This document shows, one piece after another, positions 1 through 13,690 of a stretch of DNA of 13,690 nt. The notes under the pieces were generated by a model. It worked only from the letters and a program-made list of their open reading frames with translations. It ran no database searches and was not told the origin of the DNA. The position numbers were made by a program, and so were the translations under genes. Numbering within the stretch: position 1 is the stretch's first letter; each line of letters begins with the position of its first letter. Origin of the DNA: Promethearchaeota archaeon (GTDB taxonomy: Archaea > Asgardarchaeota > Lokiarchaeia > Sigyniarchaeales > SOKP01); assembly GCA_048940645.1 (NCBI GenBank), contig JBHLOI010000078.1:1-13690 (forward strand). Direction: 5' to 3'.

Positions 1-299
1 TTTATTGCTGTAAGATGGGCAAATAAATTAAAATGTTGGAACACCATACCAATTCTTGCTCGAACAAGGTTTAGATTAATTCCACTTTCTGTGATATTTT
101 GACCTCGGAGATATATCTCCCCTTTATCTGGAGGGTTTAACATATTAATGCAACGGAGTAATGTACTCTTGCCAGACCCACTTGGTCCAAATATGACTTT
201 CACCTCTCCCTCTTCTAAATCAAAAGAAACTCCTTTAAGAACATCTAAATCATCATAAGATTTCTGTATATCAACAACCCTTAATACAACCTCTTTCAT
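1..299 (-). CDS. Polar amino-acid ABC transporter ATP-binding subunit (GlnQ/HisP family), N-terminal part; runs off the window edge
   Basis: Not in the ORF track. Manual translation from ATG at 299 gives MKEVVLRVVDIQKSYDDLDVLKGVSFDLEEGEVKVIFGPSGSGKSTLLRCINML...RIGMVFQHFNLFAHLTAI, with Walker A GPSGSGKS and Q-loop MVFQHFNLF. GGAGGTGG SD lies upstream, and the start is 2 nt after the permease stop. Confidence 0.95.
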   Translation of the reverse strand, partial: MKEVVLRVVDIQKSYDDLDVLKGVSFDLEEGEVKVIFGPSGSGKSTLLRCINMLNPPDKGEIYLRGQNITESGINLNLVRARIGMVFQHFNLFAHLTAI

Positions 300-301
300 C
301 T

Positions 302-1366
302 TTATCCACCTCCCATTCCTAACTTTTTAAGTTTATTAGTTTGTCGTTCACCAAATAATTTTGTAAAAGGAAAAGTAAGAAGAAAGTAATTAATAGCAAC
401 AACCACATATACTATAGCCCAGAGCGACCTGTTGGTTACAGATACATAATAAGCAGCTCTAGTCATCTCAATAACTCCAATCTCAAAAGCAAATGATGTA
501 TCTTTAATAACAACGGCATATTCATTAGACCAGCTAGGTACTGCGATTCTTAATGCTTGAGGCATTAAAATGTGTCGAAAAGCTTTTAATCGAGTCATTC
601 CAATCGAATAAGCTGCTTCCATTTGCCCAGGGTTCACAGATAAAATAGCTCCACGAAAAATCTGAGACTGATAGGCTCCACTACGAACAGCCAATGCTAA
701 AATTACACTATTAAGTTCTGAAATGTTTGGAATTGAAAAATAAAACAAGAATATTAAGACTAGGATTGGAATACCTCGAAATAATTTTTCATAACCAATT
801 CCTAACCAACGAAGTTCTGTTGAGCCATAAACTCGCATAATTGCTAAAGTAATTCCTATTAATAAACCAAACAATAAACCAAAAACAGTAAGTATCAACG
901 TGCTAGGTAATCCCTCGATAACTGCGTATAAAAATATATAAGGAGGAATATAAATAAGAGAAAATATAAGATATAGTGTAAGAACTATTATGAAAAGTAT
1001 GATCTGAGTGGCACCAATAAATAAAAGTGATTCTAAGAATCCTTTTCTATGTATTATCATAATCACAAATGTACCAATTATAATGTTAAGGCTAGTGTTA
1101 AAAAACTCTAGAATTAGTTTTTCTCCAATAAAAATTTGAAATATAATACGAACTGGAATATTTATCATTAACCAAACTAAATTAATTATAGCGGCACTCT
1201 TAAAAGACGTGTCCCATACTTTCTTTTGAACTTTTTGTTTTTTCCTAACAAACCATCTTATAAGAAAAACTCCAATCAAAAAAATTATAGTTGAAATAAA
1301 AATCCATTGGATATCTCTTACTGCTAAAGCTATATCTTCTAGACTTGTTTGAAAAAACATAACCAT
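302..1366 (-). CDS. Polar amino-acid ABC transporter permease (HisM/GlnP family) with an extra N-terminal hydrophobic region
   Basis: The C-terminal ~215 aa carry family motifs FRGIPILV, the EAA loop (SQIFRGAILSVNPGQMEAAYSIGM), ILMPQALR and IKDTS. It sits between the SBP and ATPase genes. Confidence 0.93.
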   Translation of the reverse strand: MVMFFQTSLEDIALAVRDIQWIFISTIIFLIGVFLIRWFVRKKQKVQKKVWDTSFKSAAIINLVWLMINIPVRIIFQIFIGEKLILEFFNTSLNIIIGTFVIMIIHRKGFLESLLFIGATQIILFIIVLTLYLIFSLIYIPPYIFLYAVIEGLPSTLILTVFGLLFGLLIGITLAIMRVYGSTELRWLGIGYEKLFRGIPILVLIFLFYFSIPNISELNSVILALAVRSGAYQSQIFRGAILSVNPGQMEAAYSIGMTRLKAFRHILMPQALRIAVPSWSNEYAVVIKDTSFAFEIGVIEMTRAAYYVSVTNRSLWAIVYVVVAINYFLLTFPFTKLFGERQTNKLKKLGMGGG

Positions 1367-1430
1367 CCACTTATAATTTAAGAAAAAATATTTGTCATAT
1401 AAATAAAAAAAATGATATTTGGGATTAGAG

Positions 1431-2228
1431 TTAACCTGTTAAGTTCCACTTGTCAAGACTATCATACATCCTTCCATCAATAAAACTTTCTAGGATAACG
1501 TTATTAATCTCATATAATAGTTCGGGTTCTCCATGTCTGGTCCAAAGACTAAATTCTTCTGTCCCTGTACGAAGAACAATCTTGAGATCATATGATTTTG
1601 CCCAAGCAGTATAAACTGGTTCATCAAGATATACTGCTGTAACTCCACCACCAATTAAAGCTAACATCATTGCATCAACTGTAACATATTGTGTGATGGT
1701 TGTTACACCAGCTAACACTAAATCATCGTATAGTGTGGTACCAGCTTGTACACCAACTTGAGTTCCTTCAAGTTCAGTTAAATTTGCGATTGAGAGTACT
1801 GTCTCATTAGCTACAATAACCGCTTGACCCACGGTAATATAGGTAACTGAGGCTGCAAGATAACTTGATCGATTTTCGGTATAAGTCAGCGCAGCGGCAA
1901 GCATATCTACTTTACCTTCAGCACACGAAACAACTAATCCACCAAAATTTCGATCACTCCACTGTATAGTTACACCAAGCTCATCAGCAATCCAATTACA
2001 TAAATCTACGTCAAAACCTACAATCTCTGCCGGTATTGCAGAAGTATTCACATATTCAAAGGGTTCATAGTCAGTACTTGTTCCAATTATAATATAACCT
2101 CGGTTTTTAATTATATCAAGTAATGATGTGCGTGGTGGTTCTCCTATTGGTGAAGGAATAAACCAACCTCCGAGAATACCTATTGCTAAACAGGCTACCA
2201 TTCCAACTACTATAAATTCTCTTTTCAT
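1431..2228 (-). CDS. Amino-acid ABC transporter substrate-binding protein (family 3), N-terminal membrane anchor
   Basis: Motifs IIIGTSTDYEPFEY, GFDVDL, GKVDML, TENRS and VGVQAGT. Hydrophobic N-terminus. AAGGTGA SD upstream of the ATG. Confidence 0.93.
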   Translation of the reverse strand: MKREFIVVGMVACLAIGILGGWFIPSPIGEPPRTSLLDIIKNRGYIIIGTSTDYEPFEYVNTSAIPAEIVGFDVDLCNWIADELGVTIQWSDRNFGGLVVSCAEGKVDMLAAALTYTENRSSYLAASVTYITVGQAVIVANETVLSIANLTELEGTQVGVQAGTTLYDDLVLAGVTTITQYVTVDAMMLALIGGGVTAVYLDEPVYTAWAKSYDLKIVLRTGTEEFSLWTRHGEPELLYEINNVILESFIDGRMYDSLDKWNLTG

Positions 2229-2370
2229 ATGATATTCACCTTGCCATTTTAAATTTTATTAAATTTTTGGATTTATTTTTATTTAAATTCTGATGGTGAA
2301 ATATTTCTTAGGTTGCTATATAAAAATTTCTATTTTTGAATAAACCACAAAAGTTATGATTAAGAAGCTA

Positions 2371-2739
2371 TTAACCTCTAAGAGCCGTTGTTATTGCTCG
2401 AGTTAACCTTATTACTTCTATAACCTTACCCTTTTCAACAGTTATTTCCTCACGGCTAATTGCGTGAGTAAAATCACCCTTTCCCTCACAGATTCTTACT
2501 AATGCTTTATTATCACCTGTCATAAGAATATCCGGTTCTGAAGCCTTCCCCTCAAGTACTCTCACTTTTCTTGTTCTAATTTCGATAAAAAAGGGGTCTT
2601 CATTATCTAACTTAAATTGAAAAACCATATCCCAATCCACTGGTTTTCCTGCAATATCTGTTATAAAAACTTGCTCTACTTTGGGTTTTACATTCATTTT
2701 CTCAACAATCTTTTCTAACTTCTCTTTCGCTATACCCAT
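2371..2739 (-). CDS. SCP2 (sterol carrier protein 2) domain lipid-binding protein
   Basis: Pattern VFQFKL...FFIEI...VLEGKASEPDILMTGD...AISREEITVEKG matches the SCP2 fold. It abuts the DUF35 gene (TAAATG) and has a GGAGGTGA SD. Confidence 0.8.
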   Translation of the reverse strand: MGIAKEKLEKIVEKMNVKPKVEQVFITDIAGKPVDWDMVFQFKLDNEDPFFIEIRTRKVRVLEGKASEPDILMTGDNKALVRICEGKGDFTHAISREEITVEKGKVIEVIRLTRAITTALRG

Positions 2740-3243
2740 TTATTCTTCACCTCCTTCAAATTCAGATTTATTTGCCCATAACTCATATTCATCTTCTGGT
2801 ACAAAGAAAAAATCGGTCATTTTTCCTTCCCTTTCATCTAGCTTTTTAAATACTGCTCTCACCCGACGTCCTTTCTTAATTTTCGAAGGTACTAAGTTTT
2901 CTGAAAAAATTCCTTGAAATAATGCGGTATTAGCTCCATCTAACTTAATAAACCCACATCCATAGGGTACATTTTTAATAAATTCTGCAGCACCATACCA
3001 TACTATTGTACTAACTTCAATAGTTCCTGTATGAGACATTTCAATCCATTCAGCAGGAGTATAACATTCAGAGCAATTTTTCCTCGGAGGCATCCATATT
3101 TTTCCACATTTCGTACATTTAGTTCCATGAAGCTTTTTATTTTTCATTAATTCAATAAAAAATTTCGATTGACCTCCCATAGTATATTTATAATCAATTT
3201 GTATCTTATCACGTATTTGATGATCTTCGAACTTTTCACTCAT
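2740..3243 (-). CDS. DUF35 family Zn-ribbon + OB-fold protein (acyl-CoA-binding thiolase partner)
   Basis: CTKC-x10-CSEC zinc ribbon with PPR, followed by OB-fold motifs GTIEVSTIV, PYGCGFIKLDG and IKKGRRVRAVF. ATGA overlap with the thiolase stop. Confidence 0.92.
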   Translation of the reverse strand: MSEKFEDHQIRDKIQIDYKYTMGGQSKFFIELMKNKKLHGTKCTKCGKIWMPPRKNCSECYTPAEWIEMSHTGTIEVSTIVWYGAAEFIKNVPYGCGFIKLDGANTALFQGIFSENLVPSKIKKGRRVRAVFKKLDEREGKMTDFFFVPEDEYELWANKSEFEGGEE

Positions 3244-4487
3244 GCTCTTTTCAACCCCTCCTCATTTGCCATTACAATTACTGCAGCATATGCTGCACCA
3301 GGACCCCCTATTGAATGAGAGATCGCCCTTCCCTTTTCAATTGTTTTAAGCTGATGTTTACCTGCATCGCCTCTTAATTGAAGTGCTGCTTCGCCTGTTG
3401 ACATTATTCCTGTCGCTCCCACTGCATGACCACAGCCTATTAGACCTCCACATGGGCAACATGGCATTTCTCCATCCATAAAAGGGCCTCCTGCTTCTAT
3501 CCATTTTCCACCTTCCCCGAAAGGTACGAAACCTAACTCTTCATATGAGATTACTTCTTGTCCCGAAAATGCATCATGCAATTCAGCGCAATCTATTTGA
3601 TCTTTAATCTTATTATAATCTAAACCCGCCATTTTATATGATGCTTTTGCTGCATAAATATTTGAATAAAGACGACCCATATCTTCTCTATTCCCTATAA
3701 AGCAATCTGTATTTGCAGCGCCTACTCCTGTAATCCAAATTGGATTTTCAACTTTTAATTCTTTCACTTTTTCTTCATTAGCTAAAATCAATGCTGCTGA
3801 AGCTTCCGAGTAAAGGCAACAATCTAACATCTTAAAAGGATAACAAATAATTCTCGAATTCATCACATCTTCAACAGTAATTTTCATGGGAGATTGTGCT
3901 TTTGGATTTTTCATCGCATTTCCATGGTTTTTAACAGATACTAATGCCATTTGTTCTTCTGTTGGATTCCCAAATTCTTCAAAATGGGCATTCACCATAG
4001 TAACATAAGAACTCGCCGCCATCATACCCATAGGATATTCATAAGTCATGTCAGCAGAATATGCTATAGCATTTAATACTTCAGGAGTTGTAGTTCCTGT
4101 CTGCTCATCATAACAATCATTACATTTCTCTACTCCCAAACAAAGACAGAGATCTGATATGCCAGAAGCCACTTCTGCATAAGCCATTCTTACAGTATAT
4201 CCTCCTGTCGCTCCACCTGTCGCTATGCGCGTACCTGGTTTGTTATTCATCCCCAAATAAGAATTGGTGAAAATATCAGGCATAAATTGCCGTTCAAATA
4301 ACTCATTGTATATCCCATAAACTGTAGATTGAAGGTTCTTATGAGTTATTTCAGCTCCATTTTTATTAGCATCTTCAAGCGCTAATTTTGTAGCATCATA
4401 AGCAAGTTCAAAATATGTTTTATCTAAATATCTAGCTTTAAATGGCGTTATTCCAATTCCGATTATCGCTACTTTTTTAGATATCAT
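3240..4487 (-). CDS. Thiolase-superfamily protein (SCP2-thiolase/archaeal type) lacking the canonical nucleophilic Cys
   Basis: Motifs KVAIIGIGITPF, LCLGVEK, VSVKNHGNAMKNPKAQ, ELHDAF, GGLIGCGHAVGATG and HSIGG. The CxS position reads ATGGATGG. Confidence 0.93.
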   Translation of the reverse strand: MISKKVAIIGIGITPFKARYLDKTYFELAYDATKLALEDANKNGAEITHKNLQSTVYGIYNELFERQFMPDIFTNSYLGMNNKPGTRIATGGATGGYTVRMAYAEVASGISDLCLCLGVEKCNDCYDEQTGTTTPEVLNAIAYSADMTYEYPMGMMAASSYVTMVNAHFEEFGNPTEEQMALVSVKNHGNAMKNPKAQSPMKITVEDVMNSRIICYPFKMLDCCLYSEASAALILANEEKVKELKVENPIWITGVGAANTDCFIGNREDMGRLYSNIYAAKASYKMAGLDYNKIKDQIDCAELHDAFSGQEVISYEELGFVPFGEGGKWIEAGGPFMDGEMPCCPCGGLIGCGHAVGATGIMSTGEAALQLRGDAGKHQLKTIEKGRAISHSIGGPGAAYAAVIVMANEEGLKRA

Positions 4488-4725
4488 TATATTTCACTAC
4501 TAAAAGTATTATTACTTTGTTTTTTGAATATTTTAATGAATTAAATTTAATTTCGTTAAAAAAGTATATAATTGTTAAATTTTCTAATAAAAAAATAACC
4601 ATAATTTAACTTATAGAATTTTAAAACAGAAAATTAAAGTAATTTTAAGAAAAAAAATTTATGATTGTAAAGACTCTTTGTTCTTTAATTGCGATCATCA
4701 TTAATAGGACTTAAAGACAAAAATT
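4488..4725. promoter_or_regulatory. Divergent AT-rich promoter region between the thiolase operon and the HIRAN gene
   Basis: 238-bp non-coding gap between divergent starts, with several TATA-like elements (e.g. AAAAGTATATAA near 4560-4571). Exact sites were not resolved. Confidence 0.5.
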
Positions 4726-5139
4726 ATGTCGAATTTTCAGGATAAAGACTTAAAGAAAAATAGTTATTATCATATGCAAATAGTTGGTATTTATTATACG
4801 AAAAACGGAAAATATTTATCTAAATTACCAACAAAAACTCTGTTAGAATTAAGAGCAGAACCAAATAATAGATATGATAAATACGCGGTAAGTGTCTGGC
4901 ATAATGAAAAAAAATTAGGTTATCTTCCACGAAATCAAAATAAGTCTTTCTTTACAGCCTTAACCTCAAATACTCTAACTTTAAGTTGTCTTCTTGGTTC
5001 TTACATACCCAGTTCAGAAAAAAAGAATTATTCTAGGGGATTTCAACCAGAACGGGCGAATATCACAATACATACTTATAAAAATGAAATTGATTGGCGA
5101 CCAGTATCATTAATTCCTGAAGACACTATGGCATTTTAA
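4726..5139 (+). CDS. HIRAN domain protein with C-terminal WRP-x4-PED-x-MAF tail
   Basis: HIRAN signature IVGIYY...LELRAEPNNRYDKYAVSVW...KLGYLPR. The C-terminal 17 aa resemble the end of the 11933..12427 protein. Confidence 0.88.
   Translation: MSNFQDKDLKKNSYYHMQIVGIYYTKNGKYLSKLPTKTLLELRAEPNNRYDKYAVSVWHNEKKLGYLPRNQNKSFFTALTSNTLTLSCLLGSYIPSSEKKNYSRGFQPERANITIHTYKNEIDWRPVSLIPEDTMAF
5086..5139 (+). repeat. Copy 1 of a diverged 54-bp coding repeat (HIRAN tail), inverted relative to 11933..11986
   Basis: gaaattgattggcgacca...cctgaagacactatggcattttaa. 41/54 nt identical to copy 2 by hand count. Confidence 0.8.
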
Positions 5140-5160
5140 AAAAAAGAACAAAAAATTATT
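5138..5160 (-). terminator. Probable archaeal-type oligo-T terminator for the minus-strand MoxR/VWA operon
   Basis: A-tracts on the + strand (AAAAAAAAAGAACAAAAAA) read as T-tracts just downstream of the VWA stop, in the 36-bp gap between convergent genes. No hairpin is present. Confidence 0.4.
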
Positions 5161-5175
5161 ATAAGTTGCTTTAAA

Positions 5176-6618
5176 TCATTTCATTAATTTAGCAATTACT
5201 TCTGGAAGATTTTTTGGAGTACAAGCAATAACATCGATACTCATTTGGTTCATTCTTTTAGCATAGTCACGATTATACATAGGTTTACTATTATGCCCAA
5301 GAGCAGCTATACCTAAAATTTTTGTTTGACCTTCTAATAATTGTTTTAATGCTTTAGTTAATTGATCATAGCCTCTACCCTCATAAAAATCACTAATTAT
5401 AACCATAATAGTTTTTTTTGGGTTCTTAATTAAAGATTGACCATATCTAACTGCTTTTGTGATATCCGTACCTCCCCCAAGTTGGACGGACATTAAAATA
5501 TCAACAGGATCGTCCAATTTACTAGAAAGATCAACTACTTGAGTATCAAAAATAACAAGATTCGTATAAACTGAAGGCAAACTTGCAAATATCGAAGCCA
5601 TTACTATTGAATAAATCACTGAGTCGGTCATAGACCCACTTTCATCAATTAAGACCACTATCTGCCAAGGTTTTTTTCTTTTTTCAGCGCTAAAAAAACG
5701 GGGTTCACCCATAATTAGTTTTTTAAGTTTAGGATCATAATGCTTTAAATTCCTACGGATGCTTTGCTTCCAATCAATATTTCTGAACACTTTAATGGGC
5801 GTATGTTTGTCTCGCTTAAGAGCTCCAACAATATGTTTTTCTACTTCTTGCTTAAACTGATCTTTAAGCGCATCGACTACCTTTTTGACAATTTTTCGTG
5901 CCACAACTTTAATATTTTCAGGAAGCATATGCTTTAAGCCAATAATAACCTTTACCATATCAAGACTAGGCTCTACTTTTTCAAATAGTTCAGGATTTTT
6001 TATTATATCTTTTAATTCAGAGCGCTCTATTAAATCTTTTTCAAGTACTTCCTTTGATTGATGTGGAAAAAATTTCTTTACATTTTCAATCCATTTAGGA
6101 ATGGAGAGTCTACTCGATTCTAATCCTGCGCTTCTTTTCTGATTACGAATCCCATAGACAAAATTTAAAGTATCATCCATTTGCTTTAATTCCTCCCGAT
6201 TTGTAGTTTGATTAGCTTCTTGTGCTTTTGAATTTAGACTACTTCGCCTCTGTTGTAGGGGAGAACCCCCCTTCGTTCGCATCTGATCACCTACTCTTAC
6301 TTTTAATTGATCACTTACTGTTCCTTTCATTTTTGCTCTACTCTTCTGTGCCTGACCAACAGCTTTTTGTAGTACTTGGTTCTGATTTAATTTTTGTTTC
6401 GTGTTGCTAGCTCCTACTTGTTTCTGTTTTCTTTCTTTCAGATGTTGTTTATGATGATCCCTCTGATCAGATTCACTATATTCTCTGGAAGGACTAAAAT
6501 TTATTTCATAATCTTCTGCTTTTTTACCAAGTATTAATCTCCATCTATCAAGAGCAGTTCTATTATTCTCAGGGATATTTTTTAAGTCTTCCACGTCAAA
6601 AACTTGATTTGATGCCAT
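5176..6618 (-). CDS. VWA domain protein (YehP/CoxE-like), partner of the MoxR ATPase
   Basis: Complete MIDAS motif: DESGS, GGTD, ISDFYEG. Also N-terminal RWRLILG and IDWKQSIRRNLKHY. The start is probably ATG 6618 (MASNQV, after GGAGAG and 5 nt past the upstream stop) rather than 6642. Confidence 0.92.
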   Translation of the reverse strand: MASNQVFDVEDLKNIPENNRTALDRWRLILGKKAEDYEINFSPSREYSESDQRDHHKQHLKERKQKQVGASNTKQKLNQNQVLQKAVGQAQKSRAKMKGTVSDQLKVRVGDQMRTKGGSPLQQRRSSLNSKAQEANQTTNREELKQMDDTLNFVYGIRNQKRSAGLESSRLSIPKWIENVKKFFPHQSKEVLEKDLIERSELKDIIKNPELFEKVEPSLDMVKVIIGLKHMLPENIKVVARKIVKKVVDALKDQFKQEVEKHIVGALKRDKHTPIKVFRNIDWKQSIRRNLKHYDPKLKKLIMGEPRFFSAEKRKKPWQIVVLIDESGSMTDSVIYSIVMASIFASLPSVYTNLVIFDTQVVDLSSKLDDPVDILMSVQLGGGTDITKAVRYGQSLIKNPKKTIMVIISDFYEGRGYDQLTKALKQLLEGQTKILGIAALGHNSKPMYNRDYAKRMNQMSIDVIACTPKNLPEVIAKLMK

Positions 6619-6623
6619 TTTTT

Positions 6624-9101
6624 CTAAATCTCTCCAAACCATAATTCAAAAATATCTTTAACTTTTTTATCAATAGCTCTAAAGAAAAGAATAATTTCGT
6701 CTTCTATGTTTTCGCTTATCCCTTTAATTGTACTGGTTTTTAACCCATAAAATTCTGCGAGTTTTTCAACAAAGATTTCATATTCTCTCGGTTCGAGTTC
6801 AGAGAAAGTTTTTCTCATTACTGGCAATATTGCTGTAAATATATCCCATTCGATGTTTTCTACAACTTCTGAAAGTAATGCGACAATATCTTTATTAAAT
6901 AGAATTTTTGCTTGACACACATAAATTATGCCCCGAATTAAATCTCCAATTCTTACTTTTATAGCCTCTATACTATTGAGGTACTCAAGAATAACTATTT
7001 TGATATCAGAAAGGCTTAATTTATTCATAAGATACAGAATCCCTAAATTTCCACCCTTAATAAATTCATTATCTGTACTACTTATACATATTTTAATACT
7101 TTCAATGAAGGCATTTAAATCAAGATTAATTTCTAATAATGAATTTAATGCATTTGCGAGCTTTTTTGTTGCTTGAATATATTTCTCTTCATCTTGAGTT
7201 GGCGGGTTTGCATAGTTTGGGATAGAATAACAGCATTTATAATAGCAACGGTGAATAATTTTAGTTATAAGAGATAAATTATCTTTTTGCCCCCCCATCA
7301 TTGACAAATATTGGTAAATCATAAATAAATTCAAAAACCCCTGAGATAAGCTCAAATATTCATTATCTATTTCAATTGAATTAAGACATTCAGTATATAA
7401 TCTTTTAAATTGATTTGTAAATCCCATTAATAGACTTTGGAATAATAAGTTTGAAACTTTATTGAAATCTTTAAGATTTTTTTTTGCTTCTTCTATCAAT
7501 TTATTGTAACTAGCCTCTTCGACAGTGGAGCCATAAGCACTTAATTCCACGAGTTTAACATCAATTGAAGGGGTCCAATATAAACTCCATACTTCTGTAA
7601 ATATCCCTGTTTTCCCTTTAAAGATATCTGGTCCATAAACTCTTTCTAAGAAATCTATTGCCAAAAATTTTATTCTCCAAAAAAAATACGATGTCTTTAT
7701 ATCCGTTTCTTTACGAAGATTTAAACTATGATCTTTCTTTTTCTCCTCAAGACTTATTCCAAGCGATTCCAATTGAAAATAAAAATCTTCTTGAAGAGGT
7801 AATCTGCCAATTTTTTTGGTTATTTTTCCTACTTTATACCCAATTGTTTTACTATAAATGTAATCTTCCAAATACTTCCCATCAATTTGTGGATTACCTT
7901 TAATAAGAATCATGTGAATAGCATCTATGATATCTTTAAGGCCAGGTTCAATTCGTCGTCTTAACATAGCTAGCATCTTAGCACCTTGAAAAGCGTTAAT
8001 TGAATCTGAAATAGAAACGACGTATCCATCTTGGCGAGCATTTTTAAAAATATCTGTTATTATCTCTAATGCAACAACTTCATAGGGATTTTTAATTTCC
8101 ATTTTTAGTTTATCCCAGATATTTTCATAAAATTGCGGGGCTTGATTTCCAGAAAGGTAACCCGATTTATTAGATAATCTAAAATAAGAAAATGGGATTA
8201 ATGAGTTGATTAAGCCTTTAATAGGATATTTGGTATCTTTTGATGGAGTATCTGGGAGTACAACTGAATGGATTCCGCCAGTTATTACTAGAGTGTCTTT
8301 TTCTTTAACATCATGCTTTTTTATGTAATTTTCAATCTGATATTTCATATAAGATTCTCTTTCCAAAGTACCATCAGCGTTTAATAATTTTCTATCGATT
8401 GTTTGACGTACACATGAACAAAATAGTAATATACTCTCTCTTAACTGATTAATTTCGGATTTTGGAGCACTTATTTCAAATAGAGTTTCCCAAGTTTCAT
8501 TAAAACTATCAAATTCGAATATTTGAGTTATTTTTTGATAAAAAGTACTAAGAAAATATATTGATTCTTGGTGAGCTATATGAGAACTCAAATTCTTACT
8601 TTCACTCGATTCAGATAAAAAGGATAATAATCCAGTTAGGGGTAAATCTATAAAATGAACGGGTATTTTACGAGAAATACACTCAGTAAGAGCGACGAGT
8701 TCAGGAGAATAAGAAAGATATGGATAAAAAATTTCAAATTTTACAGGAATAGATGGATCTGGACTTAAAATGCCATTTAAACCAAAATCGTTATTAATAT
8801 CTGCAAATATTGACAAAATCGCTATAGGAGGGAAAGTGTCAGCTGCCACAATATATTGAAATAGATTTTCAATAAGTGAAGGTCCCTCTATTAAAACTAA
8901 TTTTGGTTTGAATTTCTCAATCCATTTTTTAACTAGAATCGTTGAACTTGGTGAGTGGTGGCGGATAGGTAAATATTTAATATTAGAGCGTTTTACTTTT
9001 GATATTTGATTATGAATTAGTTTTATATTTAATCCCAAAGAATTACATACTTCAAATAATATATTTTCCAGACTTTTTACATCTAGACTGTTAAAAATCA
9101 T
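6624..9101 (-). CDS. YehM-like / DUF5682 family protein
   Basis: Motifs IRHHSP, VLIEGP, YSPE, FIDLP, RESYM, VITGGIH and PFSYFRLS..SGY.SG..AP, followed by a long helical C-terminus. It occupies the canonical position between the AAA and VWA genes. ATG at 9101 follows GAGGA (the ORF track starts at TTG 9104). Confidence 0.88.
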   Translation of the reverse strand: MIFNSLDVKSLENILFEVCNSLGLNIKLIHNQISKVKRSNIKYLPIRHHSPSSTILVKKWIEKFKPKLVLIEGPSLIENLFQYIVAADTFPPIAILSIFADINNDFGLNGILSPDPSIPVKFEIFYPYLSYSPELVALTECISRKIPVHFIDLPLTGLLSFLSESSESKNLSSHIAHQESIYFLSTFYQKITQIFEFDSFNETWETLFEISAPKSEINQLRESILLFCSCVRQTIDRKLLNADGTLERESYMKYQIENYIKKHDVKEKDTLVITGGIHSVVLPDTPSKDTKYPIKGLINSLIPFSYFRLSNKSGYLSGNQAPQFYENIWDKLKMEIKNPYEVVALEIITDIFKNARQDGYVVSISDSINAFQGAKMLAMLRRRIEPGLKDIIDAIHMILIKGNPQIDGKYLEDYIYSKTIGYKVGKITKKIGRLPLQEDFYFQLESLGISLEEKKKDHSLNLRKETDIKTSYFFWRIKFLAIDFLERVYGPDIFKGKTGIFTEVWSLYWTPSIDVKLVELSAYGSTVEEASYNKLIEEAKKNLKDFNKVSNLLFQSLLMGFTNQFKRLYTECLNSIEIDNEYLSLSQGFLNLFMIYQYLSMMGGQKDNLSLITKIIHRCYYKCCYSIPNYANPPTQDEEKYIQATKKLANALNSLLEINLDLNAFIESIKICISSTDNEFIKGGNLGILYLMNKLSLSDIKIVILEYLNSIEAIKVRIGDLIRGIIYVCQAKILFNKDIVALLSEVVENIEWDIFTAILPVMRKTFSELEPREYEIFVEKLAEFYGLKTSTIKGISENIEDEIILFFRAIDKKVKDIFELWFGEI

Positions 9102-9120
9102 CAATATTCCTCTTCTTTTC

Positions 9121-10401
9121 TCAATACACTATTTTACGAAATGCGTTATCAAATTCTTTCCAAGTAGTATTTTGAGAACTACGTGTTCGAACCACCATGT
9201 TAAAATACTCCTTTAATTTTGGGAGATTCTCCTTATCATCCTTTACAACTGAATCAAGCATATTTAACGCTATATGTTTTGGTTCAACTTTTTCATCTCC
9301 AAAAAATTTGGCATAAATCGCACTATCCAATAATAATGAAATTTCTTCTGAAGTTGACATTACAGTAGATATTGGAGTAAAACGACCGCCCTTTATACTT
9401 CTCCCAGTTCTTAGTTCATGGAAAACTGTGACCAAAAGATCTAATGTATCTTCTGGAATTTGAATTTTAAATCCAATATTAGAAAGCAAATCATTTGTTC
9501 TTTGCATAACTATTTTCCTCTCTAATGATTTTTCTTGAATTACAGGAATATAGATAAAATTAAATCGACGTTTTAAAGCAGCGCTCATTTCATTTACGCC
9601 TCTGTCTCTATCGTTAGCAGTAGCAATTACATTGAAACCTGGAACTGCGTAGATTAAATATTGTGCCCCCAATTCAGGAATAGGAATAACTTTTTCGGAT
9701 AGAATTGATATCATGCTATCTTGAATTTCTTGTGGACAACGAGTTAATTCTTCAAATCTAAGGATTTTACCTTCCTTCATAGCGTTAATTGTTGGTGAAG
9801 GTACTAGCGATTCTGGGCTAGGCCCCTCTGAAACTAAAAGCGCATAGTTCCATGAATATCTAATTTGATCCTCAGTGGTTCCTGCTGTTCCTTGTATTAA
9901 ATAAGTGCTTCTACCACATATTGCTGCTGAAACATGCTCTGAAAGCCATGATTTTGCTGTCCCGGGTTCTCCAATCAACATTAATGCTCTCTCACTTGCC
10001 AAGGTTACAATTGCCTTTTGAATCAAATTGCGATCCCCAAAAAATTTCGTAGTAATTTTCACTTTTTTTTGACTACTATTTTCTTTTAAAAGAAATTGTT
10101 CATCGGAGCCCGTAATAAACAATTCGACCATTTTTGGTGATAATTGCCAATTTGGTGGTTTTGGGTAAGTATCATTCTGTATTAAAGCCTTTAATTCCTC
10201 AAAATATAATTCTTCTGCTGGAAATCTTATTTTCACATCTTTTTTTTTTTCTTGCTTTGTATCCTTTCCTAAAATGATGTTAGTAACTTTTTTAACTTTA
10301 GGAACCTCTATGTGTTTTGAAACTGAATGCTTGGTTGGAGATTTTTTTTGAGTAGTTTTAGCAGAAGCATTTTTACTTAGTGGAACTTTCTTTTTTGCCA
10401 T
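9121..10401 (-). CDS. MoxR-family AAA+ ATPase, YehL subfamily
   Basis: PPNWQLSP, Walker A GEPGTAKSWLSEH, QGTAGTTEDQIRYSWNYALL, Walker B RFEELTRC, and sensor/Arg finger ATANDRDRGVNEMSAALKRRFNF. The start is either ATG 10401 or GTG 10410. Confidence 0.94.
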   Translation of the reverse strand: MAKKKVPLSKNASAKTTQKKSPTKHSVSKHIEVPKVKKVTNIILGKDTKQEKKKDVKIRFPAEELYFEELKALIQNDTYPKPPNWQLSPKMVELFITGSDEQFLLKENSSQKKVKITTKFFGDRNLIQKAIVTLASERALMLIGEPGTAKSWLSEHVSAAICGRSTYLIQGTAGTTEDQIRYSWNYALLVSEGPSPESLVPSPTINAMKEGKILRFEELTRCPQEIQDSMISILSEKVIPIPELGAQYLIYAVPGFNVIATANDRDRGVNEMSAALKRRFNFIYIPVIQEKSLERKIVMQRTNDLLSNIGFKIQIPEDTLDLLVTVFHELRTGRSIKGGRFTPISTVMSTSEEISLLLDSAIYAKFFGDEKVEPKHIALNMLDSVVKDDKENLPKLKEYFNMVVRTRSSQNTTWKEFDNAFRKIVY

Positions 10402-10429
10402 TTTCTTCACTTCTTATTAGAATTTAATT

Positions 10430-11569
10430 TTATTTTATTTTATACACTTTTTTTAAAAATTCTCTATTATCAAGGGAATGAACTTCTGAAATTGTTGGAA
10501 ATTCCAATTTATTATTTTTTACTATACTGATAGGGAATAAGCCAAGTTGTCCTCTTTCTATAATTAATTTACAAAATAATCCATCAATTAAGTTTTTCTT
10601 TTTAACTATGGCATTAAAAACTTTAATTAAATTTTGATTTCCCGTCTTCTTTGGGAGTCTAATTGATAAAGGATATTCTTTCTCATGGTTTATGGTGAAA
10701 ACATGAACAGGAATCCTTATTTTATCATCTTCTTCTAAATAAGTTGAGGTGATATCTACATCTTTTACATATAAATAATCCAAAGAATTTGTGGGTAGAT
10801 CGAAAGGAGTTACTTCATAGTCTTTAGTAAGTTTTTTATATATATCATTTGAGTTTAAATAAAACTTCCTTAATTTTAATATGGAAAAAATATCATCAGA
10901 AGTTTCCCCAATAAACACTTTAGATTCTGGATTTTTTTCCAAAAAAATATTTTTTTCTTTAATCGCACATGGAATATTTTCCAATTCAATAAAATTTGAT
11001 AAAATTTTTCCGATAATAGAAGGTGGTTCAGAGTTAGGCAATGATCGTTGTAAAAAGAACTCAGGGTTGATCCCTTCTTGATACGGAGACATTAAATTCC
11101 ATTTTAATACGGAACTCCTTGTTTTTCCAAATATTGAAAGGAAATAAAACACGAATCCCATCATCACACCCTCTAAAATAACTTTTTCAACTCCAATTAA
11201 CTGTAATATAAGTTTATTAATTATTTTCGTTTCAGATGTAGCACCCTTTAAATTATTATAAAAATCTATATCATTTTTTTTAGTTTGAGCATAGGCTATG
11301 AACGCACGACTTTGGAGCCAACAGTTACTCAGGAAAAATATGTATCGTTCAATATTAAAAGCAGGGTTATTATCTAAGAACCTCATAAGTTCAACATGTA
11401 AATATCTAAGTGATGTTGCTAATCTAAATAATTTTAATTGAGATGTATGTTGTAAAAAGAATTCTATTTCTCTAATGCTTTCAGGATTAACGAAATTTAG
11501 CCCATTATAAGTTAAGGTTTCGGTAAAGTTCTTTATTTGTTCAGAAACCTTTTCTAATTGAATATTCAT
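10430..11569 (-). CDS. Hypothetical protein with an N-terminal helical bundle; resembles non-SWIM parts of YehQ-like proteins
   Basis: 379-aa ORF within the operon, with an ATGA overlap with the upstream gene. NGL...LKLFRLATSLRYL recalls YehQ-type helical segments (from memory, not searched). Confidence 0.7.
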   Translation of the reverse strand: MNIQLEKVSEQIKNFTETLTYNGLNFVNPESIREIEFFLQHTSQLKLFRLATSLRYLHVELMRFLDNNPAFNIERYIFFLSNCWLQSRAFIAYAQTKKNDIDFYNNLKGATSETKIINKLILQLIGVEKVILEGVMMGFVFYFLSIFGKTRSSVLKWNLMSPYQEGINPEFFLQRSLPNSEPPSIIGKILSNFIELENIPCAIKEKNIFLEKNPESKVFIGETSDDIFSILKLRKFYLNSNDIYKKLTKDYEVTPFDLPTNSLDYLYVKDVDITSTYLEEDDKIRIPVHVFTINHEKEYPLSIRLPKKTGNQNLIKVFNAIVKKKNLIDGLFCKLIIERGQLGLFPISIVKNNKLEFPTISEVHSLDNREFLKKVYKIK

Positions 11570-11910
11570 TTTTCTTCTTTTTTTAATAAATTATTCTTTA
11601 TACATTCAAGTGTAGTAATTCTCTCAAACATTCTTATAATCGTTATAATTTGTAATATGTTTTTTGCTAGTTCCTTTTTCAATTCTTTAGACATTTCACC
11701 ACGCAATAGCAAATCCATTTTTGTTAAAAATGATTCTAAATGTTGATTCAATGTATTTAGATGCATTTTTTCCAATTTTTGTATTAATTTAGCTAAATCA
11801 TGGTAATTTTCTCTACTGAAAGTTAAAATTCCATTAACTATAATTTCATTCAAATATGGCTTTATTGTATTAAAGATGGAGAATATTTCTTCTGCATCAT
11901 AGAGTACCAT
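11566..11910 (-). CDS. Small helical hypothetical protein
   Basis: 114-aa ORF with a GAGAGGT SD, translationally coupled to the downstream gene, amphipathic helical pattern. Confidence 0.75.
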   Translation of the reverse strand: MVLYDAEEIFSIFNTIKPYLNEIIVNGILTFSRENYHDLAKLIQKLEKMHLNTLNQHLESFLTKMDLLLRGEMSKELKKELAKNILQIITIIRMFERITTLECIKNNLLKKEEK

Positions 11911-11932
11911 TTACGAAAACCTCTCTATTTCT

Positions 11933-11986
11933 TTAAAATGCCATAAAATCTTCAGGTAATATTTCAATTGGGCGCCATTCAATTTT
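11933..11986 (-). repeat. Copy 2 of the diverged 54-bp coding repeat (SWIM-like protein tail)
   Basis: Minus strand reads aaaattgaatggcgccca...cctgaagattttatggcattttaa. Confidence 0.8.
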
Positions 11987-12427
11987 TCCTTCGAGTGCAT
12001 TCTCATATCTAACAAAAATAGCTGTGGCCTGTGGTTTATTTAACTTTGGTTTTATTCCTTTGGTATTGTCAACCCATTTAATCAATTCATTAACTGTGCC
12101 TTGATTTGACTTTACTGTGGCAATTAAAGCCAATATTATATGTTTACAGATCTTCCCTCTAAGGCCACCGCAAGGATAAAGATTTTGAGTACCACAGAAA
12201 AAGCTTCCATCATTATTAAGCAATATTGCATACTCCAGTTTATCAGGATGTGTTTGTGATTTAACTATTGCGCGAAGCGATTCGCTATCTTTATCAATAT
12301 AAAGTAGATTTGACTCTTTTTTAAACATCCTAATAGCTTTAGTAATCCTTGGAGGTATTGTCTCATCTCTTATTGTAAATTTTATTTTATCCACAAACTG
12401 TAATATTTTATTATCAACTAGACTCAT
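11933..12427 (-). CDS. SWIM-like zinc-finger protein with C-terminal WRP-x4-PED-x-MAF tail
   Basis: A beta-rich segment (LRAIVKSQ...YAILL...FFC) precedes CGTQNLYPCGGLRGKICKHIILAL (C-x7-C-x7-C-x-H). First gene of the MoxR operon. Confidence 0.8.
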   Translation of the reverse strand: MSLVDNKILQFVDKIKFTIRDETIPPRITKAIRMFKKESNLLYIDKDSESLRAIVKSQTHPDKLEYAILLNNDGSFFCGTQNLYPCGGLRGKICKHIILALIATVKSNQGTVNELIKWVDNTKGIKPKLNKPQATAIFVRYENALEGKIEWRPIEILPEDFMAF

Positions 12428-12665
12428 GACTTATTATCCCTAGATTTTTCTTCCGTTAAACATAAATCAAATTTTACTAATTTAAACTATCAATTTTTTT
12501 CATCTATTTAAATGCGTTATCAAAAGAATGAGAAAAATAGTATTTTTTGGAGTTTTATAGAATATAGAGATAGGAATCAAAAATTGAACCTAATTGGATA
12601 GTTTTTTTAGCTTCAAAATAGTACTATTAACTATAAGTATTGATAATATAAGAGTGATTAAAAAA
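12428..12665. promoter_or_regulatory. Divergent promoter region between the MoxR operon and the flavoprotein gene
   Basis: AT-rich gap between divergent starts, with TTTAAA/TTTATA elements and two short palindromes. Confidence 0.5.
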
Positions 12666-13688
12666 ATGATCAAAACACGAATAACAGAAATGTTTGGAAT
12701 AAAGTATCCAATAATAAGTGCACCGATGGGTCCCTTTTATACAACTGAGTTATCTGTCGCTGTTTCAGAAGCAGGTGGACTTGGAGTTGTAAGTCATGCT
12801 ACGTTGAGGGGAAAAAATTCTCTCCAAGATATGAAACAACAATTAGAATATGTGATTGAACATACTGATAAACCTTTCGGTGTAAATGTTCGTACTGCCC
12901 GGATTCAAACTGATCATAAAATAATGTTAAGAAAAATTACCCAATGGTGTAAAGAGAACTCTAAATTACGAGAACAATTAGTATATATTTTAACAAGTGC
13001 CGGAAGTCCTCGTTTCGCAAGTCAATTATTAAAACAGAAGGCTCCTCAAATAAAACATTTTCATGTAGGGCCAGCGTTGTGGTTGATTGATAAAATTGTT
13101 GGTTCTGGATGCGATGGAATTGTTGCTACGGGTACAGAAGGTGGTGGACATCAAAGTTATGAAGGGATTAGTACTCTTGTTCTAGTTCAACAAGCAGTAA
13201 TAAAATATCCAGATAAACCTGTAATAGCATGTGGTGGTATTTCAAGCCCAGAAGGTGTAGCTTCTGGATTAGCTATGGGTGCTGATGCCATTGCTATGGG
13301 TACCAGGTTTATTGCTTCAAATGAAAGCGAGTTTCATCCTAATTATAAAGCTCTTATCCCTCCAGCGACTGCTCGGGATACATTACTAACTACAGGAGGT
13401 TTTGGACCAATACGATTATTAAAAAATAAATATTCTTTGGAACATGGAGAAATTATGACAAAAGAACAAAAGGTCTCCCAAGAACTAGCTTATGATATGG
13501 ATGAATATTTGAAGGATCTTTATGCATATGAAATTGTATATACTAAAGGAGATGTAGAGAATGGAGCAATACCAGTAGGTCAAACGTGTGGATTAATTGA
13601 TTCTATAATGGATGTAGATGACATTATTACTAGTTTTTCAAATGGAGCTGAAAAAATATTAAAAGATTTATGTTCTAAAATTTTATAA
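12666..13688 (+). CDS. Nitronate monooxygenase / FabK-like FMN-dependent oxidoreductase (2-nitropropane dioxygenase family)
   Basis: Family N-terminus MIKTRITEMFGIKYPIISAPMG, then AVSEAGGLG, KPFGVN, EGGGH (catalytic His), PVIACGGI, GADAIAMGTRF and PVGQTCGLI. The start is placed at ATG 12666 (GAGTGA SD) rather than TTG 12594. Confidence 0.93.
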   Translation: MIKTRITEMFGIKYPIISAPMGPFYTTELSVAVSEAGGLGVVSHATLRGKNSLQDMKQQLEYVIEHTDKPFGVNVRTARIQTDHKIMLRKITQWCKENSKLREQLVYILTSAGSPRFASQLLKQKAPQIKHFHVGPALWLIDKIVGSGCDGIVATGTEGGGHQSYEGISTLVLVQQAVIKYPDKPVIACGGISSPEGVASGLAMGADAIAMGTRFIASNESEFHPNYKALIPPATARDTLLTTGGFGPIRLLKNKYSLEHGEIMTKEQKVSQELAYDMDEYLKDLYAYEIVYTKGDVENGAIPVGQTCGLIDSIMDVDDIITSFSNGAEKILKDLCSKIL

Positions 13689-13690
13689 TC

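Follow-up and report, generated by a model that had tools for sequence, protein, structure and literature searches.

The closest described relative of the locus discussed here is the yehL-yehM-yehP-yehQ cluster of Escherichia coli. We analysed a stretch of 13,690 nucleotides, called the window below, from a Promethearchaeota archaeon (contig JBHLOI010000078.1, positions 1 to 13,690 of the forward strand). It contains an operon with homologues of the E. coli AAA+ ATPase (42% identity to YehL across 367 residues, E 5e-97), DUF5682 protein (23% to YehM across 781 residues, E 1e-39) and VWA_CoxE protein (38% to YehP), and both clusters have a SWIM component. Our subject is a short tail that ends two otherwise dissimilar proteins of this locus, the SWIM-like zinc-finger subunit of the operon and a stand-alone HIRAN protein encoded beside it. 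In the E. coli type the YehQ-like protein unites two SWIM fingers with a region that resembles the 379-residue protein of the window. It is encoded after the VWA gene and has no tail. In the window, by contrast, the SWIM module with its tail, a 114-residue protein and the 379-residue protein are separate genes that all come before the ATPase gene. None of the E. coli YehL/M/P/Q cluster proteins has the WRP..PED tail. Neither the tail nor DUF5682 nor the function of yehLMPQ is treated in any literature that we found, and the yehLMPQ papers merely list the genes.

Two other systems are worth considering. The ddrTUVWX genes of Deinococcus deserti are a five-gene operon of the DdrO/IrrE regulon that is strongly induced by radiation (PMC5552922; PMC6300522), and they belong to the radiation/desiccation-response regulon of Blanchard et al. 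2017 (PMC5552922). By annotation a SWIM gene is the first and a VWA CoxE-like gene the last of this operon, in the same order as a bacterial operon of the window's type (L052; our genomes carry G numbers and our loci L numbers). This likeness in annotation makes a DNA-damage context plausible for the machine. In the vWA-MoxR ternary conflict systems a MoxR ATPase and a MIDAS-vWA pair (MIDAS, metal-ion-dependent adhesion site) are joined by a common association element to third components that vary (Kaur, Burroughs, Iyer and Aravind 2020, PMC7159879). SWIM, YehL and HIRAN are not mentioned in that paper (PMC7159879). In those systems whole domains (VMAP) are what is shared and the effectors vary, whereas in our case the shared element is a peptide of 16-17 residues and it is DNA-binding domains that vary.

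Short C-terminal motifs that gather proteins are found elsewhere. The tip of the bacterial protein that binds single-stranded DNA (SSB; D-D-D-I-P-F-COOH) and the C-terminal PCNA-interacting-protein (PIP) boxes of Archaea each run from an acidic stretch into hydrophobic residues up to the free carboxylate, and they gather repair and replication proteins. The tail would resemble them as an acidic-then-hydrophobic C-terminal docking motif that brings many carriers to one socket. It differs in having no Qxx[ILM]xx[FY][FY], and the combination of W-R-P and P-E-D is its own. It also differs from PIP boxes in that its socket appears to be on a sporadic, horizontally mobile machine and not on a core clamp. 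Recruitment by short C-terminal motifs and the coupling of MoxR-vWA pairs to variable partners (PMC7159879) are both already known principles.

The genome assembly has 3,833,992 bases and 29.8% G+C. The closest homologues of the proteins of the window come from sources whose names include Promethearchaeota, Lokiarchaeota and Hermodarchaeota. The operon is on the minus strand and reads SWIM-like subunit, 114-residue protein, 379-residue protein, AAA+, DUF5682, VWA. The features are as follows.

4726-5139, plus strand: stand-alone HIRAN protein of 137 amino acids with the C-terminal tail (Pfam HIRAN, PF08797)
5086-5136, plus strand: tail of the HIRAN protein, residues 121-137, from the translation: EIDWRPVSLIPEDTMAF
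5176-6642, minus strand: YehP-like VWA_CoxE protein of 488 amino acids (Pfam VWA_CoxE, E 4e-45)
6624-9104, minus strand: YehM-like DUF5682 protein of 826 amino acids (Pfam DUF5682, E 1e-87, 295.6 bits against a cut-off of 26)
9121-10410, minus strand: MoxR AAA+ ATPase of the YehL subfamily, 429 amino acids (Pfam AAA_5, E 1e-36)
10430-11569, minus strand: protein of 379 amino acids, specific to the tail-bearing operon type and a candidate socket for the tail (no Pfam family; 45 homologues)
11566-11910, minus strand: helical protein of 114 amino acids (its stop overlaps the start of the 379-residue gene)
11933-12427, minus strand: SWIM-like zinc-finger subunit of 164 amino acids, ligands C78, C86, C94 and H96 (first operon gene)
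11936-11986, minus strand: tail of the SWIM-like subunit, residues 148-164, from the translation: KIEWRPIEILPEDFMAF

The HIRAN protein and the SWIM-like protein both terminate in WRP-x4-PED-x-MAF-stop. An earlier note on this DNA had counted 10 identities over 17 ungapped positions, in register with the stop codons, and had seen no other similarity between the two proteins. Translation reproduces the count, and BLASTP finds nothing besides the tail. At the DNA level 41 of 54 bases are identical, and the differences include the synonymous pairs CGA/CGC and GAC/GAT. A recent DNA duplication of the tail is ruled out because so few bases are identical and there is no similarity in the flanks. The note had argued from the synonymous differences for selection on the protein. 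These differences are real, and the tail is near-invariant across divergent orthologues. A six-frame scan of the window's own genome with strict and loosened patterns returned exactly these two tails. Judged from the alignments, chance is excluded as an explanation of the match, since the tail stays near-invariant in SWIM orthologues with 54-96% identity (about 55 clusters) and in HIRAN orthologues with 41-88% identity (12 sequences).

The motif can be written [ILV][ED]-W-R-P-x4-P-E-D-x-hydrophobic-A-hydrophobic-COOH and spans 16-17 residues. Neither set of orthologues shows any change at W, R, P, P, E and D, and all 12 HIRAN orthologues have retained the tail. In the SWIM protein W151, R152, P153, E155, P158, E159 and D160 each keep their identity in 90% or more of the Asgard modules and likewise of the bacterial ones. 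When bacterial and Asgard modules are taken together, conservation in the tail roughly equals that of the zinc finger and by far exceeds that of the remaining SWIM module.

We compared 39 distinct Asgard module tails, 13 distinct bacterial module tails and 34 tails from tail-only proteins, numbering the W as 0. All classes have the W, R and P, a hydrophobic residue at +3, +5 and +6, the P-E-D, position +11, the Ala at +12 and a terminal hydrophobic residue. This penultimate Ala is found in 36/39 Asgard module, 10/13 bacterial module and 31/34 tail-only tails. Glu +4 is invariant in every module tail and +10 is aromatic in most of them; both positions vary in the tail-only tails. Since +4 and +10 are kept only in modules and the remaining positions in all carriers, the pattern fits two layers of constraint, with one face presumably turned to a partner common to every carrier and another only to the SWIM body.

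Three known kinds of C-terminal motif were considered and rejected. The tail is not a PIP box, as there is no Gln at the spacing required by Q-x-x-[ILM]-x-x-[FY]-[FYW] and the Asgard tails have no aromatic pair. It is not an HbYX motif, as the penultimate residue is Ala in most tails and not Tyr. It is not an archaeosortase or exosortase sorting signal (PGF-CTERM, PEP-CTERM) either, as the protein stops 4 residues past P-E-D and has no hydrophobic helix.

The distribution of the tail was examined in public proteins and in Asgard genomes. A 19-position tail profile run against 1.84 billion representatives gave 25 matches at E<=1e-3, and 23 of these have the motif exactly at the C-terminus. Of 400 Asgard genomes, 22 were matched by a 30-column tail profile (2 of them by weak partial matches), and all 22 belong to one order. 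In this order the bare tail is found on at least 7 architectures beyond the stand-alone HIRAN protein. The carriers are these.

HIRAN proteins of 137-252 amino acids
OB-fold/SSB-like plus HIRAN proteins of 377 and 512 amino acids
a UDG-superfamily protein of 269 amino acids (UDG, uracil-DNA glycosylase), with another UDG protein from an exhaustive search
a Cdc6-lid protein of 296 amino acids
a leucine-rich-repeat (LRR) protein of 438 amino acids
a protein of 638 amino acids
a Zn-ribbon family with a conserved domain of about 135 amino acids and variable N-termini, 168-395 amino acids in total (L013:6725-7549, L015:8028-9101, L017:2390-3343, L019:9421-10608, L021:4952-5458, L022:3509-4498)
small CxxC proteins
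proteins of 724-792 amino acids, also from the exhaustive search, whose Zn-ribbon matches lie 100-115 residues ahead of the tail
an OB-fold protein from the same exhaustive search, bearing a whole SWIM module

There are also very small tail-bearing open reading frames of 41-115 amino acids. Profile comparisons with the HIRAN, UDG, Cdc6-lid, LRR and Zn-ribbon carriers show that the tail-only proteins resemble the SWIM protein solely across the last 17-20 residues. In the profile-profile comparison of the Zn-ribbon and SWIM families the 18-residue tail alone aligns (E 1.8e-10). The earlier idea that the tail is portable between different N-terminal domains is thus borne out by a bare motif on proteins that share nothing else in these profiles. 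Within one Asgard order it has evidently been transplanted onto unrelated and mostly DNA-binding proteins (HIRAN, OB-HIRAN, UDG-family, Cdc6-lid, Zn-ribbon). From their domain assignments the carriers are overwhelmingly binders of DNA ends, single-stranded DNA or damaged bases. The domain of the Zn-ribbon family (CxxC...CPYC, TNNQIG, NYQxLF, IGP) invariably ends in the tail, and this family is the commonest second tail-bearing gene beside the operon.

It is necessary to ask where the tail comes from. Species genomes scanned with a YehL alignment have such cassettes in at least 599 places. The 80 loci listed are mostly bacterial and can be sorted into three operon types. Type A has the SWIM protein with the tail, the 114-residue protein in some cases, the 379-residue protein, AAA+, DUF5682 and VWA, and it is found in Planctomycetota, Myxococcota, Lysobacterales and Asgard. 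Type B is the E. coli type, with AAA+, DUF5682 and VWA genes followed by a YehQ-like protein, and has no tail. Type C is found in cyanobacteria, Singulisphaera and other Asgard lineages, and its SWIM protein ends in PEMxWF. This type C protein has about 156-186 amino acids and a conserved end [FILV]-[PL]-E-M-x-W-F, which has only P-E in common with the WRP..PED tail (L045:11662-12141, L046:14299-14769, L123:6420-6890, L126:6375-6935, L129:6710-7183).

The bacterial type A SWIM modules terminate in DWRPTETxPEDYYAL-stop, and the 379-residue gene lies between SWIM and AAA+ in 10/10 bacterial and nearly all Asgard type A operons. Bacterial type A operons often encode two tail-bearing proteins, a minimal one and a large pentapeptide-repeat one (in one case also with BRCT). 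Pentapeptide-repeat proteins of the Qnr/MfpA type are DNA mimics. The large bacterial proteins carry the whole SWIM module along with the tail. No tail-only protein was found in five bacterial type A genomes, where each match spans the whole end of the module. On these alignments the tail is the ancient C-terminal end of the SWIM module, present in bacteria and Asgard and older than the Asgard transplants. Within this sample at least, moving the bare tail onto other proteins seems to be an invention of the Asgard archaea.

The profile of the 379-residue protein aligns to residues ~240-575 of the YehQ-like proteins in type B operons (L068:14623-16368, L069:14609-16354, L073:14729-16855; E. coli yehQ is L012:11101-12945). 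In these proteins two SWIM fingers stand immediately before the region homologous to the whole 379-residue protein. It must be noted that hhalign comparisons of small 379-residue and 114-residue alignments with single E. coli YehQ, YehK and YehI sequences were negative, and that the link appeared only when a deeper 379-residue profile was compared with YehQ-like proteins of Clostridium and spirochaetes. For a possible paralogy of the 114-residue protein with the N-terminus of the 379-residue protein, hhalign gives an E of only 0.1, with 37 columns aligned in the same register. An extra helix and the tail exist solely in the split form, exactly at the split point. By homology, YehQ is roughly the SWIM fingers fused to a half like the 379-residue protein, and type A is the split form. 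By its gene content, then, this Asgard archaeon has in the window a YehL/YehM/YehP MoxR-DUF5682-VWA cassette of the split-YehQ kind ('type A').

The individual subunits fit this assignment. The AAA+ protein has the EDQI[KR]Y[STG]W signature of YehL-type ATPases. The MIDAS of the VWA protein is complete (D333-x-S335-x-S337, T392, D418) and all its residues are invariant across 15 homologues. The DUF5682 protein has invariant H49, E73, E135, D153 and H279, and no peptidase family was detected in it by Pfam and profile searches. R49, F71 and R75 of the 379-residue protein are kept in both bacteria and Asgard. The 114-residue protein is found in Asgard operons, including a reduced one that has no 379-residue gene (G037). 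The finger of the SWIM-like protein, C78/C86/C94/H96, aligns to YehQ 162-204 (E 2.7e-5). The protein has no Pfam SWIM match, and Foldseek with its model gives no match among solved structures. The best solved match of the model is ZSWIM8 with a weak Z of 4.9, and against a bacterial cluster of 164-residue proteins in the ESM Atlas it reaches a template-modelling (TM) score of 0.87. Sequence searches of solved structures with the DUF5682, VWA and 379-residue proteins (single sequences and profiles) gave nothing useful. The HIRAN protein scores 46.2 bits with Pfam HIRAN against a cut-off of 24.7. Its AlphaFold2 model matches the HLTF HIRAN-DNA complexes (4s0n, 5bnh, 6kcs) and lp_0118 with Foldseek E of 1e-5 to 1e-4 and a probability of 1.0. 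A comparison with known defence systems (PADLOC) matched no operon protein, and its sole match was the HIRAN domain to the model of a candidate system.

Two side observations concern the locus itself. The AAA+ protein has an N-terminal extension (10230-10410, minus strand) of about 60 residues that is Lys/Ser/Thr-rich and probably disordered. It is typical of Asgard type A ATPases and absent from E. coli YehL and type B proteins, and it could bind nucleic acid. The operon and the HIRAN gene form an insertion between a thiolase/ChsH2-like OB pair (2740-4487, minus strand) and a nitronate monooxygenase-like gene (12594-13688, plus strand).

The HIRAN gene is convergent with the VWA gene across a gap of 36 bases. 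The earlier note had tied it to the operon by its tail in spite of the opposite strand, and had made linkage to MoxR/VWA loci one of the points on which its idea would stand or fall. The linkage is there. In 9 genomes the operon has another tail-bearing gene as its immediate neighbour, arranged in one of three ways, and tail genes are elsewhere the first or last gene of the operon.

Co-directional, just past the VWA gene: G027 (HIRAN), G256 and G170 (Zn-ribbon family)
Convergent with the VWA gene: the window, G275 and, as a remnant locus, G265
Upstream of the operon: G037; divergent from the SWIM gene: G198 and G203

Within the order, non-SWIM tail proteins are found in 11/14 genomes with a type A operon versus 7/139 without. 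The Fisher p for this co-occurrence is 5e-10, which is overstated as related genomes are not independent. The Asgard genome scan found no tail proteins in genomes with the tail-less cassettes of types B and C.

Degraded loci are found as well. In G265, a member of the window's genus, the whole operon is gone through an in-frame deletion that leaves SWIM residues 1-89 fused with 388-488 of VWA in a remnant of 186 amino acids (L031:9959-10519; compare 5176-12427 of the window). Thiolase and nitronate-monooxygenase genes flank it as they do in the window; the adjoining HIRAN-tail gene is intact and 88% identical. The reduced operon of G037 (L010:9864-11041) has a HIRAN-tail gene, then after 13 bases an N-terminal SWIM remnant of 72 amino acids without zinc finger or tail, and continues with a 140-residue relative of the 114-residue protein, AAA+, DUF5682 and VWA; the 379-residue gene is missing.

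We argue that the operon encodes a socket into which the tail docks as a short linear peptide, and from the comparisons above we put the probability of this at roughly 0.6. Since bacteria and archaea have kept the same tail, its partner ought to move together with the operon, and since the tail is missing from the other operon types, that partner ought to be peculiar to type A. The earlier note had thought of the MIDAS or of threading of the free end. In MIDAS ligands such as those of Rea1-Rsa4/Ytm1 and of integrins, an extended peptide contributes an acidic side chain that completes the coordination of the metal, and here the MIDAS is intact and the E-D of the tail invariant. The comparative evidence points to the parts specific to type A (SWIM module, 114-residue and 379-residue proteins) and not specifically to the MIDAS. 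The 379-residue/114-residue pair is the most likely candidate for the socket because it is fused to SWIM fingers in E. coli-type YehQ proteins, and we propose it tentatively. The VWA MIDAS and the DUF5682 protein are both rather unlikely sockets, and the SWIM body itself is a less likely one still. Positions conserved specifically in type A number 10 in AAA+, 9 in VWA and 12 in DUF5682 (including R222, R384, R464 and R619), so no single subunit stands out. A complex prediction with a 30-residue tail segment, the 379-residue and 114-residue proteins and VWA(126-488) scored 0.04 against a mark of 0.32, a result that weighs neither for nor against a socket among them.

If the tail is a docking peptide, it would attach alternative heads to the machine, besides or instead of the SWIM head. 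The heads would recognise DNA ends, single-stranded DNA or damaged bases, and the ATPase/VWA/DUF5682 core would then act at the sites they mark. The best functional reading is a remodelling machine directed to DNA damage or DNA ends, with targeting heads attached by the tail.

Several findings weigh against docking on the operon. The UDG, Cdc6-lid, LRR and 792-residue tail genes lie away from any operon. Two genomes, G211 (99% complete) and G237 (96%), retain intact SWIM-tail and HIRAN-tail genes that are under purifying selection, with a dN/dS (ratio of nonsynonymous to synonymous substitution rates) of 0.1-0.5, and a search of both for YehL-type AAA+, DUF5682 and 379-residue genes found none. 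Their synonymous divergence (dS) from the operon-bearing G207 is only 0.03-0.13, so the absence of the operon could be a recent loss; the tail genes could also have a role independent of it. G037, with a HIRAN-tail gene and no 379-residue gene, argues against the 379-residue protein as the only socket. Finally, the SWIM tail is confidently packed in cis in the AlphaFold2 model. The model has a mean pLDDT (predicted local distance difference test) of 89.4, the tail about 91 over 151-160 and about 78 over 161-164; residues 153-156 are modelled as a strand and 158-161 as a helix. Part of the conservation may be structural. In the genus of G211, G237 and G207 (g22) the SWIM-tail gene is detached from the operon (L035:135-6249, L041:9713-16698, L036:782-1294). 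It lies about 1 kb from herA-, mre11- and rad50-like genes, recognised by N-terminal motifs only, and an Alba-like gene is on the other side.

One can imagine that this packing is all there is, that the tail is a purely intramolecular cap without a partner and that the shared sequence is convergent or an inherited fold-capping element. The SWIM tail is strand-paired with high pLDDT, and the WRP segment is a strand in the HIRAN model too. However, the motif is found in at least 8 unrelated contexts and always at the extreme C-terminus, residues 129-137 of the HIRAN protein (the last 9 of its tail) have pLDDT <50 and are not packed on the domain, and a cap leaves the linkage to one operon type unexplained. 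We consider this the least probable of the explanations. Those 9 free residues, and the position of the tail at a free terminus, would suit a client or degron tag. In that scenario DNA-bound HIRAN, OB, UDG and SWIM proteins would be recognised by their tails and then remodelled, stripped from DNA or processed at the C-terminus, with the AAA+ ring or the N-terminal His/Glu-rich domain of DUF5682 as possible agents. MoxR-VWA pairs do act on clients and the MIDAS binds extended peptides (PMC7159879), and DUF5682 has its invariant His, Glu and Asp. But a SWIM-tail protein encoded by the fixed first gene of the operon in both bacteria and archaea makes more sense as a subunit than as a substrate, and the searches of DUF5682 turned up no peptidase family. 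A tag of this sort is unlikely.

A third scenario keeps the socket and changes the purpose. The tail-only proteins could be decoys or regulators that compete for the socket of the SWIM subunit, or that displace its cis tail and bind the SWIM body, which would make them an on/off switch and not a means of retargeting. The confident cis docking of the SWIM tail is in line with this, as are tail-bearing reading frames as small as 41-115 amino acids and the persistence of SWIM-tail and HIRAN-tail together without the operon in G211 and G237. However, binding to the SWIM body in the manner of the cis tail should require Glu +4 and the aromatic at +10, and these are not kept in the tail-only tails. 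Most carriers also have real DNA-binding domains that a pure decoy does not need, so we find this scenario improbable. The operon-less genomes can be explained in yet another way if a host hub outside the operon, such as a replisome or repair platform, binds the tail and the SWIM subunit localises the machine through the same hub. The carriers are proteins of DNA metabolism, some are unlinked to the operon, and one genus has its SWIM-tail gene beside herA-mre11-rad50 and alba instead of the operon. Against a hub, the tail is conserved in bacterial operons even though bacterial and archaeal replisome hubs differ, the tail proteins are sporadic within genera and track an equally sporadic operon, and the tail does not fit the PIP-box and HbYX consensus. 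This makes a host hub very improbable, only a little less so than a cap. Docking on an operon-encoded socket is the explanation we favour over these.

A more specific form of the docking proposal would make the tail the universal plug of a head-swapping DNA-surveillance machine. Sensors for 3'-OH ends (HIRAN), single-stranded DNA (OB), damaged bases (UDG) and other DNA features would all fit one socket in the 379-residue/114-residue YehQ half. This is possible, though we would not bet on it. If it is true, one peptide of 16 residues defines the client or adaptor repertoire of a widespread machine, with bacteria using whole-module heads and Asgard using bare-tail heads.

YehL-type MoxR-DUF5682-VWA cassettes, in their at least 599 places in species genomes, have no known function or solved structure and a scant literature. 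A transplantable tail flags which other proteins belong to the machine and is a first handle on what the machine acts on. The binding of DNA ends, single-stranded DNA and damaged DNA by the carriers agrees with the only physiological clue, the radiation induction of ddrTUVWX. The tail peptide is also a simple reagent that could serve to locate the socket, to purify the complex and to take stock of its partners. The tail also shows clearly how a short linear motif has spread in nature across unrelated folds, in archaea close to the eukaryotes.

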